Shown here: piece by piece, positions 4,764 to 10,206 of the stretch
Numbering within the stretch: the first letter of the stretch is position 1
Layout of the letters: each line of letters opens with the position of its first letter
Translations under genes and position numbers: made by a program
Notes under the pieces: model-generated
Seen by the model: only the letters and a program-made list of their open reading frames with translations
Told to the model about the DNA's origin: nothing
The model's database searches: none
DNA from: Pseudobdellovibrionaceae bacterium
GTDB lineage: Bacteria > Bdellovibrionota > Bdellovibrionia > Bdellovibrionales > Bdellovibrionaceae
NCBI GenBank assembly: GCA_044359815.1
Contig: JBIKLL010000076.1
Location: 1 to 12,702, forward strand
Reading direction: 5' to 3'
Length of the DNA: 12,702 nt

Positions 4764-7292
4764 ATGAGTATCAAAAATCAAAAGGGCTTATCCTTAATTG
4801 AAGTTTTAGTTTCCCTTCTCATTTTAGGACTGCTGACCGCTGGTGTCCTGTCCATGCAAAAATTAGTTTTTTCTAACGATTCTCGTGAAGTCAGTCTGTG
4901 TCGCAACACTTTGACAACCATGTTGGAAAACCTGAAAAATCATGGACAAGCTGGGTTTATTTTTGATTGGCAACCTGGGTATTTTGGAACTCGGTATGTG
5001 CCGCTGCAAAACGGATCCTATCCCTATCCGGCCATGACCGATGAAACTATCGACAACAATTTTAGGTGGCCACAAAATAACAATTACGCAGTATTAACCG
5101 GCGGTTTTGCCACGCCAGCACCCTCTGAAATTGGCTCTGGAAGATGGGTCAGTTTACCGACCACCTCGACTTCAACCACTCAGAGGACTCCAACAATGGC
5201 CGCCACAGGCTCTGAAGAAGTTTTGAAAAGCTCCATACTAATTGATTCTTACATGAATCAATTGCTGGCTCTGTATAATTCAAACACCGAATCCTTTTGC
5301 GAAAGTGAATACGGCCATGAAATTGTTAAAAATGGCGCTCTGACTGGGTTTCCAAAATGGGCCTTGGGCAACGTTGAAAATTTACCGGGCAAAGACAGCT
5401 TTAGTGTTAAACTGCATATTGAACCCAGATCTTTCACAGATCCCAACTCATCTTTGGCCTCAAAAAAATGTCCAACCAATTTATCCATTGTGCCGATGGG
5501 GTTTTTCACTCAAACAGCCTATGATGATCCCTCGGCTGATTTAACCCAACCTTACAACCAAGCTTACGTCCACTATGCAAAAATCGTAAGAGGTTTGAAT
5601 TCACTGGCAAACCTGTCTGACAACAATACTGTGCGTGATGTGGGACTGCATGTATCACTCCGCGGGGAATTTAATTCAACAGCTGATGCCAACAACAAAG
5701 TCGTATGTGAAATTTCAGATTTTTTAAAATACGACTCTGATATCGGAAAACCAAAATCTCCTAGAATCGAAGTCATTGAAAATTCCAGCTTTGATTCCTA
5801 TTTGTCAAAAATCGAAGACTGCACAAATTCAGCCCCTAACAGCAAAGTGAATTCACTGCGAGTCAGAGTAAACTCACCCGCAGACCAAGAATCAGGAACT
5901 CAATTACTGTGCTTGGATAATTCGTTTTACATCGTAGGCACCGAGGGCTGGACCTATCAAAATACAACACTGGGGAGCTATTTCAATTATCCCAACACTG
6001 AACCTTTCATCACAGCGGGTGTAAACAATCAGAACATAAAATTACCTCCGAACGATGGCTCACTATTCAGCTACAAAAAAATCCGCATGGTTCCGCCTAA
6101 ATGGGTGGGATGTGAAAGCGTCACTGCTTGTGGGGTGCAAGCTTACGGAGTAATGATGGGTGAAGGCGATAATCGCCCCTGCCCTAACGAAAAATTTTGC
6201 ATCGATTTATTGTTTAATACCAATGATGCCAACCGGGTATCCAGGGGTTGCTATGTGGATATTAAAGCCGTGGCCGTCGATACAGCCGGCAATATGTCTG
6301 AGATAATCTCGATGCCTGTGTCGACTGAAATTCCAAATTACATGTTTCCCTATGGTGGAGCTGCTGATTTAACTGCTTGTGGTGATTCGTGCGCGGGTTT
6401 GACCTATTACCCCGTTGCCACAGTTGATATCCCAAACACCAGATATCACTGCCCGGGCGGAGCGGGCACTTCCCCGACGACTTCAACCACCCTGGCCAGC
6501 ACGACCACAGTGCCTGTGGGCATACCAACAACCACAGTGCCCACTGGAACCACCTCGCCTACGGGAACCACTTCACCCACTGGAACGACTTTGCCTGGCC
6601 CAACCACAACAGCAGCCACACCAACGACTTCACCTCTACCAACCTCACCGCCGCCCACATCACCACCGGATGACCTGCCACCCGACTACGATATTGGGTG
6701 CTTACCAGCAGATTCGAAAATTTCATTGGCTGATGGCAGAGTTAAATCCATAGATCAAATTCAAAATGGTGATTTAGTTGTGGGATACGATGAAAGATTA
6801 AATCTGCCTGTGATTCAGAAAGTGCAATCACTGATTGTTCATGAACCCAGGATGCAAAGGTTTTTTAAATTTCATTTGGCCGATGGGACTGAATTTGAAT
6901 CCAACAGCATTCACCCGGTCTATATTCCCAAATATGGTACCTACAGATTTGCTCAGGATTTATATTGGGATTTCTTCCATGATAACAATCTTCAATTGTT
7001 AAATTCCCAAAAACAATTGGTCGGCGTTGTCAGCGTATCAATCACGGACCGTTTTGAGTCTGTTTACAATTTACACTTAGCAGGGCAAGACAATTTACCT
7101 GCTAATTCGCAACTATCCCCCAATTACCAATTAAGCTGGGGATATGGCCATAGTTTTTTTGCAGACGGGATTTTAGTGCATAATTCATGGGCCAGTCAGT
7201 TTGTTTTTATAAATGGGATTTTAAAACCTCTGCCCTCACAAGCTTTCCGCTTTTGCACTCGATCCGGCTGCGTAAAAAATGTCATTCCATAG
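4764..7292 (+). CDS. Prepilin-type N-terminal cleavage/methylation protein with Thr/Pro linker and C-terminal Hint (intein-like) domain (842 aa)
   Basis: Class III signal NQKG|LSLIEVLVSLLILGLL with Glu at +5. Cys-rich body with the Ig/Fn3-like strand AVDTAGNMS, then a T/P-rich linker. Hint domain from Cys646 (CLPADSKISLADG) through NSIHP (His717) and VYNL to HSFFADGILVHN807, followed by Ser808. Confidence 0.9.
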   Translation: MSIKNQKGLSLIEVLVSLLILGLLTAGVLSMQKLVFSNDSREVSLCRNTLTTMLENLKNHGQAGFIFDWQPGYFGTRYVPLQNGSYPYPAMTDETIDNNFRWPQNNNYAVLTGGFATPAPSEIGSGRWVSLPTTSTSTTQRTPTMAATGSEEVLKSSILIDSYMNQLLALYNSNTESFCESEYGHEIVKNGALTGFPKWALGNVENLPGKDSFSVKLHIEPRSFTDPNSSLASKKCPTNLSIVPMGFFTQTAYDDPSADLTQPYNQAYVHYAKIVRGLNSLANLSDNNTVRDVGLHVSLRGEFNSTADANNKVVCEISDFLKYDSDIGKPKSPRIEVIENSSFDSYLSKIEDCTNSAPNSKVNSLRVRVNSPADQESGTQLLCLDNSFYIVGTEGWTYQNTTLGSYFNYPNTEPFITAGVNNQNIKLPPNDGSLFSYKKIRMVPPKWVGCESVTACGVQAYGVMMGEGDNRPCPNEKFCIDLLFNTNDANRVSRGCYVDIKAVAVDTAGNMSEIISMPVSTEIPNYMFPYGGAADLTACGDSCAGLTYYPVATVDIPNTRYHCPGGAGTSPTTSTTLASTTTVPVGIPTTTVPTGTTSPTGTTSPTGTTLPGPTTTAATPTTSPLPTSPPPTSPPDDLPPDYDIGCLPADSKISLADGRVKSIDQIQNGDLVVGYDERLNLPVIQKVQSLIVHEPRMQRFFKFHLADGTEFESNSIHPVYIPKYGTYRFAQDLYWDFFHDNNLQLLNSQKQLVGVVSVSITDRFESVYNLHLAGQDNLPANSQLSPNYQLSWGYGHSFFADGILVHNSWASQFVFINGILKPLPSQAFRFCTRSGCVKNVIP
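6501..6593 (+). repeat. Coding tandem repeats in the Thr/Pro linker
   Basis: Two TTTVP units (6501, 6528) and three degenerate 18-nt units encoding PTGTTS/PTGTTS/PTGTTL (6540-6593). Confidence 0.8.
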
Positions 7293-7400: not shown

Positions 7401-8882
7401 TTAAGACCTTTTGTACAGTGAAAGAGCCTTATCCCTTTGGACCGAATGATTGACTATGGGTTTGGGATAACCCCCAAGGCTTCGATCAGCCTCAGGATCA
7501 TGCAGATCAGATGCTGGAATTTTTGATAATTCGGGAATATATTTTCTGATATATTCCCCAGTAGGATCAAATTTTTCGCTTTGTAACCAGGGATTAAAAA
7601 TTCTAAAATAAGGCTGCGGATCACAACCCGTCGAAGCCGCCCATTGCCAGCCCCCATTATTGGCGGCCAAATCGCCATCCAAAAGCTGTTTCATAAAATA
7701 ATTTTCACCAAGCTTCCAGTCGATCAATAAATCCTTAGTCAAAAAGGACGCCACAATCATTCGTACCCGGTTATGCATCCAACCCGTTTGATTGAGCTGT
7801 CTCATCCCCGCATCCACAATTGGAAATCCAGTTAAACCCTGGCACCATTTTTTAAAATAGGTCTGATTATTTTCCCATTGGATATTGCGAAACTGTGGCA
7901 AAAAACTTTGTGATTCCACATCGGGCCTGTGATGCAAAATCGAATAATAAAATTCACGCCAAGCCAGCTCTTTTAAAAACACCGACTGACCCGTCCCGTC
8001 CTGAAAATTTAATTTATTCAGTTGCAATAGGTTCATCGCTTGAACTGCACTTAAACTGCCATTTTTAAAATACACTGATAATCCAGAAGTTCCATTTTCA
8101 GAGGGAAAATCGCGATGAATTTTGTAATCTGAAATTCTGCTCTTAAATTGCTCAAGCCTGTCGTAAGCCACTGAAAACCCAGATTCTGGAATGGAAATAC
8201 TGACGTTTTTAGAATTTTCAGCAATAAATGCATCCAAAGAATCTTTAATAAACCCTGAATCTAATACGTCAGTCCATTTTAAATTAAAAATTTGCTTGGG
8301 TGATTTTGAATTTAAATTTTCTAAATATTTTTTACCACTGCTGCAATTTTGAATACGTTTTTGAATATTAGGATTTTGCAACAGTTGAAACCATTTTTTG
8401 GCATAGGGACTGTAGACCTGATAAAAACCATCGTCTTTTGTAACCTCCCAAGGTTCAAACAAAACATGATCTGGCTCGGTGATTAAATTTATTCCTAGGC
8501 TTTTAAAATAGTCCGACAATTGTTGGTCGCGGTCGTTTGCAAAAGGCTCGTAATCCCGATTAAAGCTAATCGTTGACGGCATATTGTTTTGAAGCTTTGA
8601 AAATATCAATTTAAAAGCTTCCAAGGGTCTGGCATCAACCACCAACAGATCCCCACCCAAACTTTGCATTTCGGATTTAAGTTTTTTGAGACTGTTTAAA
8701 AAGAAGGCGAAACGGTTGTGTGAAAAATCACTTCTGGATAAAAACACAGAATCAAAGCAAAAAATCCCCAATACCCTAGATTGATTCAGACCATGGTTTT
8801 TCTTGAGTGCCAGATTATCAGGTATCCTCAGATCCCGTCTGAACCAATGTATTCCCCATGATTGATTTTTTGATGTATTCAT
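7401..8882 (-). CDS. phrB: Deoxyribodipyrimidine photolyase, class I CPD type (493 aa)
   Basis: Motifs [50 protein letters not shown] and [30 protein letters not shown]. Trp-triad equivalents are present (IQW, IDW, GGWQW). Confidence 0.95.
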   Translation of the reverse strand: [493 protein letters not shown]

Positions 8883-8920
8883 CGAAGCATTTATATATCA
8901 ATTACCAACAAAGTAAATTT

Positions 8921-9369
8921 TTTTTCTGCACCCATCTACAATTGGCCCACTTGTCTGTTGTAAATTTGAATTTTAAAAAAATATTTCTATGATTTTACAC
9001 CTTGTGAATACTTGCTAACGGCCGCAAGCTCATCTCTCGTATTGCATAAATGCAAAGGTAATTTGTTTTTACTGTTTTTAGACACATACAGCGAGCGTGC
9101 GGGGCATATCTCGTGTTGAGTCATTATATAAAAGCAAAAAAATTGCTTTTATATAATGACTCAACACGAGAGATGAGCCCGCGGCCGTTAGCGAGTGTCT
9201 AAAAATAGTGAAAAAATTATGTTTGCATTTACGCAACACCAGATATGCCATGCGCGCTCGCAAATGTATTCACAAGGTGTAAAATCATAGAAATATTTTT
9301 TTAAAATTTAAATTATCCGCAGAAACAAACCACAGACAAGTGGGCCAATTGTAGATGGGTGCAGAAAAA
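8921..9369. repeat. ~450 bp nested imperfect inverted repeat (non-coding)
   Basis: Perfect stems: 8921-8958/9332-9369 (38 bp), 8969-9011/9266-9308 (43 bp) and 9109-9137/9143-9171 (29 bp, 5-nt A loop). Imperfect stem 9042-9085/9195-9236. All checked base by base. Confidence 0.95.
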
Positions 9370-9567
9370 CCAGTCGGAACATAAAAATATTTGTATTTTT
9401 CAGATTGACAGTATCAATCGAGTCATCGCTCTAAGTTAACTTCCTAAAATAATTCAAATTTTTTCTGACCGAAAGCTTTATCATAATAACCAAAAAAAAT
9501 CCTAACCGAATCGGAATTGAGTCTTTATCGTTTTAAGAACATCAATGAAAAAACTTCAGGAGGTTCT

Positions 9568-10206
9568 ATGATCAGTACAAAATTAAATTCCAAATCAATG
9601 GCTGAGGCAAAAAACAGCAGCCCGATTTCAACCAGAAAAATTGTTTCACCCGAGAACCTGAATCCTAACAACACATTATTTGGTGGAGCTTTAATGTCCT
9701 GGATTGATGAAATTGCCTTTATGTGCGCGCGCAGGTTTTCAGAAAACTCCAGATGCGTAACGGTTAATATAGATAATATTTCATTCAGAATGCCCATCAG
9801 GTCAGGGGAACATGTGATACTGACAGCATCTGTGGTGTCTGTTGGCAAAACTTCAATGGAAATCGAAGTCGATGTGTCTAAGGAACTGCACAATAGCGGT
9901 GAGATCATTCACACAAACCGGGCTTTTTTGACTTTTGTCAGTTTGGATGAGAAATCAAAACCCATAGCCGTGCCTAAACTGAAACTAGAAACCGAGGATG
10001 AATTTATTAAAAACCAGCAATCACTGATTCGAAAAAAGGTCAGATTGCGGCTGAAGAATTTCTTTTATAACAAAATGAAAAATCAAACTTATATAAATCA
10101 AAAAGACTCTCAAAAAACTTTATCAAAAATATCACTGGAGAACATTATTTCTGAAATCAGCAAATACACTTGGCTTAGCAAAAACATGCAAATCTTCAGG
10201 AAGTAA
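9568..10206 (+). CDS. Acyl-CoA thioesterase, hotdog fold (YciA-like), 212 aa
   Basis: Motifs NPNNTLFGGALMSWIDEIA, VTVNIDNISFRMPI, VGKTSMEIEV and LTFVSLDE. ATG 9568 is preferred over TTG 9517 because AGGAGG lies at 9558-9563. Confidence 0.9.
   Translation: MISTKLNSKSMAEAKNSSPISTRKIVSPENLNPNNTLFGGALMSWIDEIAFMCARRFSENSRCVTVNIDNISFRMPIRSGEHVILTASVVSVGKTSMEIEVDVSKELHNSGEIIHTNRAFLTFVSLDEKSKPIAVPKLKLETEDEFIKNQQSLIRKKVRLRLKNFFYNKMKNQTYINQKDSQKTLSKISLENIISEISKYTWLSKNMQIFRK

Follow-up and report, generated by a model that had tools for sequence, protein, structure and literature searches.

The giant palindrome at positions 8921-9369 of the window (the whole stretch of 12,702 nucleotides analysed here, contig C91 of a MAG) is very probably one copy of a lineage-restricted, non-coding, non-autonomous family of foldback repeats. 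The source genome is the 2.95 Mb MAG of an uncultured predatory bacterium of the Bdellovibrionales, which consists of 125 contigs and is 91% complete. The earlier note on this DNA had taken the palindrome to be a singular object; this premise was wrong, since BLAST of the region against its own genome returns 327 matches that merge into 113 places with related sequence, about 30 of them full-length copies (330-430 bp; 75-95% identity). Matches in the same orientation score far higher than the opposite ones (93% vs 78%) and, hence, the element has polarity. Taken together, the dispersal of intergenic copies, the lack of coding capacity, the nesting of copies within copies, and the turnover between strains point to a non-autonomous mobile repeat.

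The physical description of the palindrome stands: the region holds three perfect stems, namely, one of 38 bp (8921-8958 with 9332-9369), one of 43 bp (8969-9011 with 9266-9308), and one of 29 bp (9109-9137 with 9143-9171, closed by a loop at 9138-9142), and the asymmetric loop in which 8959-8962 faces 9315-9331 is present as well. Folded as single-stranded DNA, 8921-9369 forms one rod of -169.6 kcal/mol; 100 dinucleotide-preserving shuffles yield a mean of -47.3 +/- 4.9 kcal/mol, and none of them folds as well (z = -25). There is, indeed, no credible open reading frame: the sole ORF inside is a 61-aa TTG frame on the minus strand (9078-9263), without a Pfam match. A domain scan of the window ORFs likewise bears out the absence of a transposase gene from the window.

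Structure and genome BLAST, considered jointly, resolve the whole palindrome (8921-9369) into one two-layer copy of the foldback family with a copy-specific outer extension. The left half of this extension (8921-8943, 23 nt) is found elsewhere in the genome only as its mirror, the right half (9347-9369); because the outermost 23 nt on each side are unique in the genome, the 38-bp outer stem is partly locus-specific. The mirror arose either by insertion of the element into the centre of a pre-existing palindrome or by outward growth through template switching. The left long stem, of type A (8944-9011), has a variable outer part (65%), the changes being compensated in the other arm, and a conserved inner stretch of 13 nt (88%). 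It is followed by module P of the outer layer (9014-9044, plus strand), which is near-invariant with 97.8% pairwise identity, by the left stem of the inner layer (x1, 9045-9090; 94%), a layer that is present or absent at a site common to two strains, and by module Q of the inner layer (9091-9118, plus strand; 96%). The apical hairpin (9109-9171), with its 29-bp perfect stem, shows 61% identity, comes in two length types in the family, and contains pairs that covary. On the returning side lie module P of the inner layer (9162-9192, minus strand), which can also pair perfectly, off register, with the outer P (12 + 13 bp), the right stem of the inner layer (x1', 9196-9230; 96%), module Q of the outer layer (9234-9261, minus strand; 91%), which pairs imperfectly with the outer P, and the right long stem of type A (9266-9346), as delimited by inverted-repeat and alignment data. 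The asymmetric loop (9315-9331) is made of extra bases in this right arm that result in two tandem versions of the motif TCTGyGG; these bases (alignment columns 504-518) are filled only in the window copy and in copy C124b. The module order is P+ Q+ P- Q-, with gaps of 46, 43 and 41 nt, and the window copy is a unit in one orientation within the apex of a unit in the opposite orientation. A reading of the arms as carrying a permuted module order was dropped: the two arms fold collinearly, and the similarity of P and Q accounts for the off-register repeats.

Across the family, P (31 nt, 9014-9044 in the window) and Q (28 nt) are the constant parts. An error-tolerant scan detected 222 P/Q modules at 89 loci, 35 of which lie within 350 bp of a contig end, and the BLAST version of the same search gave 228 modules in 92 clusters, 38 of them touching contig ends; with so many of its places at contig ends, the family breaks the assembly. 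The basic unit runs from a long variable stem through P, an apical hairpin and Q' to the returning stem, and measures 260-550 bp across the family. In its simplest form, found at 13 loci, P and Q' are separated by 65 nt, of which 53 form the apical hairpin and the rest a short conserved collar. P pairs imperfectly with Q' because P and Q are diverged relatives; across the interior, there are 69 Watson-Crick pairs vs 22 mismatches, and the identical mismatches recur in every copy. Four modules were detected at 19 loci and three modules at 18 more, one variant of Q with a 13-nt insertion being often missed by the module scan. The two-layer composite is itself repeated across the genome, and wide three-layer forms, in which the inner unit has a full stem of its own, are found on contigs C6, C20, C83, C95 and C106. 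The arms of about 75-90 nt act as terminal inverted repeats, with 87% of positions paired in 27 copies, and the outer stems fall into at least two sequence types. At C124:77845-78450, a type-B stem lies within the outer end of a type-A stem, which shows that layering can combine both stem types. The genome also has a second foldback family, about 190 bp long and present at about 20 loci (for example, C52:6626-6827, C21:12825-13007, C124:61267-61451, C104:16885-17074 and C2:2343-2526), with similar stems around an unrelated, conserved, GC-rich and non-palindromic core of about 65 nt; it was not found in the 40 relatives searched and has no Rfam match.

How the sequence varies within the element is best seen in an alignment of 24 two-layer copies, with pairing scored on the RNAalifold consensus. 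Mean pairwise identity is 91-98% in the interior (P, Q and the inner stems), 65-77% in the outer stems, 61% in the apex, and 24-28%, i.e. that of unrelated sequences, in the flanks. Standard pairs occupy 96.9% of the cells. Changes on both sides affect 60 of 161 pairs (247 cells), as compared to 16-27 pairs when the partner is slid by 1-3 columns, and none of 500 column shuffles reached the observed value. Specifically, 48 of the 65 outer-stem pairs have changed on both sides; in the inner helix (helix 6, columns 181-278 with 308-404) the figure is 12 of 84 pairs, 11 of which belong to its apical end (columns 266-278). The same picture emerges from 27 cleanly delimited copies, where the same non-consensus base is found in both arms in 319 cells and in one arm only in 175; of the variants seen in a single copy, 23 have a compensating change and 10 lack one, and the median arm identity is 0.835 within a copy vs 0.659 between copies. 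A single-copy relic without homologues or covariation, which the earlier note had named as one outcome that would undo its reading, is not what we see: there are about 90 loci, and both the stems and the apex covary.

The combination of invariant, mismatched modules with stems that are free to vary as long as the variation is compensated favours propagation as a hairpin by a single-strand-specific enzyme. Each half of this pattern could also arise differently. The interior could be invariant because it alone is young or because it is homogenised by gene conversion, and the compensated stems could be produced, in the absence of selection, when replication switches templates inside a palindrome. 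A long non-coding RNA, which had been offered as one option, finds no support: Rfam 15 scans of the window copy and three other units returned only eukaryotic miRNA-hairpin models, all far below threshold, and mismatches of the G.T type are no more frequent than those of the A.C type (53 vs 62 in the stems, 6 vs 5 in the interior), so that nothing in this lack of strand bias points to a single transcribed strand.

The hairpin reading has to be weighed against an ordinary cut-and-paste MITE, moved by a DDE transposase, since lost or left out of the assembly, that binds double-stranded ends, the palindromy being a by-product of very long repeats. We consider this unlikely. The termini are commonly TGG...CCA, as would be expected of such an element, and the second foldback family, with its similar stems and unrelated core, is of a kind often seen in MITE families. 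Direct repeats of at least 5 nt near the ends were found in 12 of 23 copies vs 23% of cross-pair controls; the signal is weak, with variable offsets and lengths, and the excess is one of AT-rich repeats that lie 6-9 nt beyond the ends. Such a weak target-duplication signal would be easier to reconcile with a DDE than with an HUH enzyme, and the parent element could be unassembled given the 38 of 92 loci at contig ends. The conservation profile, however, is the reverse of what transposase-bound ends would produce, the termini being the least and the interior the most conserved, and recognition of a duplex does not need the covariation of the arms. Furthermore, genome scans yielded no match for IS110, TnpB, DDE_1 or DDE_3 and no multi-copy DDE gene, and the sole IS3-type gene, at a contig edge, has no similar end and was rejected as a partner.

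The genomic placement of the family is biased. All 54 internal loci are intergenic, though the gene calls used genome-wide, crude stop-to-stop ORFs, cover 92% of the genome. Among the 53 loci with a gene on both sides, the genes are convergent at 34, tandem at 16, and divergent at 3. The window palindrome is one of these three divergent cases: it lies between a DNA photolyase gene (7401-8882, minus strand), whose start codon is 39 bp from the element, and a 4HBT thioesterase gene (9517-10206, plus strand), and at this locus the element is a parasite inserted into a divergent promoter region. The best public relatives of the photolyase, at no more than 60% identity, come from MAGs of Pseudobdellovibrionaceae, Bdellovibrionaceae and Bdellovibrionales. 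For the thioesterase ORF, the listed start is a TTG at 9517, but the ATG at 9569, after GGAGG, is the likelier one. Elsewhere, the window encodes an 842-aa protein (4764-7292, plus strand) that combines, in an odd pairing, an N-terminal pilin-type methylation motif with a weak match to a Hint module below the Pfam cut-off.

Could the element be there for the benefit of the host? In this case, it would primarily be a structured element under host selection, with its repetition a coincidence; it might, for instance, terminate transcription in both directions or stabilise mRNAs, serve as a substrate of RNase III, or bind a protein. The interior, conserved at 91-98% at 24 loci beside diverging stems, does look as if selected in place, and the location of 34 of the 53 loci at convergent gene ends also speaks for this reading, yet the placement bias is equally well explained by purifying selection against insertions into promoters. 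A consensus scan of the window copy found 7 promoter-like sites vs 3.4 +/- 1.8 in shuffles, two of which face outward from the stems, and this excess, too, could be counted in favour of a host element; in itself, it is no evidence of function. The mirror TATAAT hexamers reported previously are at the positions given, 9152-9157 (plus strand) and 9123-9128 (minus strand), but they sit in the apical stem, in the variable and least conserved part of the element (61%), and are not a feature of the family. Considering, in addition, that no Rfam family matches, that the mismatches show no strand bias, that none of the 40 relatives searched has the element, that copies nest in one another, and that their layering differs between strains, we find a host-selected element highly improbable.

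The flanks offer a hint of target preferences. As judged against controls from cross-copy comparisons, the flanks form locus-specific inverted repeats above the control 95th percentile in 8 of 24 copies, 6 of which exceed the control maximum; the window copy has a flank palindromy score of 19 vs a control maximum of 10. At C33, an A-run and a T-run delimit the flanking inverted repeat, which follows a stop codon, in the manner of a terminator hairpin. Together with the self-nesting, the palindromic flanks suggest that insertion favours the centres of palindromes. As no empty site was found, transposition is inferred from the distribution of the copies.

The distribution of the family across genomes is narrow. 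It was found in none of 40 relatives (each from a different genus, with 24 belonging to the same taxonomic family), an exact 23-mer scan of 185,579 species genomes gave no match, and the element was not found in plasmids, phages or viral contigs; nor did our literature searches yield a description of such repeats in Bdellovibrio-like bacteria. One other metagenome assembly has 7 short contigs with the family, the flanks of which match the MAG at 86-98% and, hence, belong to a related strain. At 4 of the 6 sites common to both strains, the interior differs in orientation or layering, the outer stems being identical or nearly so. Specifically, contig L038 has a two-layer interior where contig C110 of the MAG has a simple one in the opposite orientation, the extra layer being bounded by a 6-nt direct repeat; L042 and C6 differ as compact vs wide layering; and in L044 and L040 the interior is flipped relative to the MAG. 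These differences at shared sites indicate that it does not take long for the interior to be inverted or for layers to be gained or lost. The suggestion of an invertible regulatory segment is thereby borne out to a small degree: the interior is flipped between strains at some shared sites, but nothing shows a regulated switch. A fixed difference between the two ends relative to P and Q, considered at one stage, was dropped given that the interiors flip between strains.

The metagenomes also bear on whether the palindrome at the photolyase/thioesterase locus exists at all, or is an artefact of assembly or amplification, such as a fold-back chimera. In four lake-water metagenome runs, no independent contig spans all 449 bp and none joins across, which leaves these runs uninformative on absence or on empty sites and could be counted in favour of an artefact. 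Contigs from these separate runs, however, reproduce both junctions, including the copy-specific outer stem, with 0 differences (8300-8992, 9279-10000 and 9340-10000), and the same four-module architecture recurs at 19 loci of the MAG and in contig L038 of the other metagenome assembly, so that an artefact is hardly credible. In an independent lake metagenome, the word depth rises to 2405 inside the element vs 8.2 in the flank.

If the family is mobile and encodes nothing, which enzyme moves it? No transposase gene lies between or beside the family ends, the MAG being incomplete so that one could be unassembled. The genome contains eight copies, 87-93% identical, of a gene for a 206-aa, weakly Y1/HUH-like protein (on contigs C23, C48, C56, C47, C49, C100, C125 and C8; e.g. 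C49:93340-93948), along with two distant paralogues (C116:57092-57760 and C123:18349-19062). Matches of the 206-aa protein to Y1/IS200-type models are weak (22-25 bits in Pfam, 23.7 bits for the NCBIfam REP-associated tyrosine transposase), and the comparison with ISDra2 TnpA from the PDB gives E 0.93, with the HUH motif and the C-terminal tyrosine region aligned. The eight genes share only the gene itself and about 100 bp of conserved upstream sequence; neither P nor Q is found within 700 bp of any of them, and the four that were checked share no flanking inverted repeats. This Y1-like gene family is present in 24 of the 40 relatives, with up to 17 divergent copies per genome, and the foldback element in 0 of the 40. 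The Y1-like genes were therefore not retained as a demonstrated partner, being unlinked to the element by sequence. In the relative with 17 copies, some Y1-like genes have upstream tandem arrays that carry a ATTGCCCC-containing motif.

The other candidates fared no better. A classical RAYT-like gene (C8:9501-10136; 72.5 bits for the NCBIfam REP-associated tyrosine transposase, with an 80-bit cut-off) was rejected since it is flanked by a different REP, of 31 nt, rather than by P or Q; this REP, which lies on both sides of the RAYT gene and recurs in clustered form on many contigs, seems to belong to a REP/REPIN system of its own. Two tyrosine recombinases show no link to the element. A gene that ends in an HNH endonuclease-like motif, as read by eye, is present seven times, in two subfamilies, at C35:383-1777, C107:10378-11352, C34:3-917, C17:6736-7437, C19:532-1962, C8:4038-5249 and C48:29399-30406; the one on C8 stops 38 bp short of a foldback copy, the others are not adjacent to one, and these genes were rejected as partners as well. 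Judging from the sequences, the family does not appear to be an IS200/IS605-derived palindrome-associated element, sharing no ends with a TnpA-encoding gene, nor would it be a retron or another reverse-transcribed hairpin DNA, as the genome scans yielded no match for a reverse transcriptase (RVT_1).

With these data at hand, propagation as a hairpin can be envisaged as follows. Copying would take place on the single strand folded into a hairpin, in which an enzyme would recognise the invariant, imperfect P:Q' duplex, so that the stems would need only to pair. New copies would prefer the centres of existing palindromes, namely, hairpins at the 3' ends of genes and the tips of other copies of the family. 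The interior would be flipped, and the number of layers changed, when the long inverted arms recombine or when template switching occurs between them. The enzyme would act in trans, the best candidates being the HUH/Y1 transposase-like genes of the genome. With the partner missing, we advance this joint mechanism, propagation as a hairpin through a single-strand-specific enzyme acting in trans, tentatively and at slightly less than an even chance. In its broader outline, the possibility that the palindrome serves as the hairpin substrate of a MITE- or REPIN-like element, raised in the earlier note, has gained support from the roughly 90 intergenic loci, the compensated stems, the invariant modules, the nesting and the lack of coding capacity.

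A further question is how such long palindromes can persist in a bacterial genome. In E. coli, SbcCD cleaves hairpins and makes long palindromes inviable, and the expected instability had been held against a giant palindrome. The SbcD model (TIGR00619) has no match in the source genome, and its cut-off is passed in 1 of the 40 Bdellovibrionales relatives; for comparison, control genomes gave a match in 13 of 14 cases and passed the cut-off in 8 of 14. For SbcC, there is only a 24-bit match in the genome. Since SbcD was not detected, the objection is eased, and it appears that the apparent lack of SbcCD in Bdellovibrionales lets such palindromes persist. One could go further and see here a distinct class of giant, REPIN-like "onion" elements, hairpin-propagated and self-nesting, with P:Q' recognised on a long free stem, integration into apices including their own, mobilisation by the divergent multi-copy Y1/HUH family of 24 of the 40 relatives, and a spread permitted by the order-wide lack of SbcCD; we regard this full construction as doubtful.

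Whatever the mechanism, it is unusual for a bacterial genome of 3 Mb to have about 90 loci with near-perfect palindromes of 260-550 bp. The compensated stems beside invariant mismatched modules make up a natural data set on the recognition and copying of single-stranded DNA hairpins, and the family allows one to test whether palindrome tolerance tracks the loss of SbcCD. On the practical side, repeats that break short-read assemblies, as at the 38 of 92 loci that end contigs, limit the quality of MAGs in this predator lineage.

Among the known systems, bacterial MITEs (Correia/NEMIS and ERIC, for example) carry inverted repeats that are short, their ends are conserved, and in some of them a TA duplication is well defined. 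Like these elements, the family is small, non-coding and dispersed, with terminal inverted repeats, the ability to form hairpins, and a location beside genes; unlike them, it is a near-perfect palindrome over its whole length, its ends are variable, the signal of a target duplication is weak, and no parent transposon was found. The very long inverted arms, which make up almost the whole element, are reminiscent of the eukaryotic foldback (FB) transposons, whose very long inverted arms are built of subrepeats, with no homology implied. Insertion sequences, which are autonomous and have transposase genes, have been described to target REP palindromes (Tobes & Pareja 2006, PMC1525189); our family would share with them the preference for palindromic targets (here, the locus-specific palindromic flanks of 8 of 24 copies, and nesting at the apex of a sister copy) and differs in encoding nothing.

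The closest comparison is with REPINs, which, according to Bertels & Rainey 2011 (PMC3116915), have conserved inverted REPs, a compensated spacer and insertions into or beside other REPINs, and form hairpins that are mobilised by RAYT Y1 transposases, folding having been proposed to serve copying. The family is, like REPINs, non-coding, intergenic, of high copy number and lineage-restricted, with two conserved inverted modules around a compensated spacer, copies in or beside copies, and a stable rod fold that competes with alternative local folds. With its 260-550 bp, it is three to six times longer than REPINs, which measure roughly 70-110 bp. The differences extend to the architecture: P and Q have diverged from each other and are two distinct modules rather than mirror copies, they lie inside long variable stems whereas the conserved modules of REPINs lie at the ends, the family regularly nests in itself in two to three layers, and the one classical RAYT gene of the genome is flanked by a different 31-nt REP. 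By its sequence, then, the family would not be a MITE in the strict sense, with no parent element and a duplication signal that is weak, even though it has the size, the lack of coding capacity, the multiple copies and the inverted repeats of one; nor would it be a strict REPIN, since the modules are not mirror copies and a cognate RAYT is lacking, although the spacer does pair. In the way it is likely to work, the family would nevertheless resemble both MITEs and REPINs.
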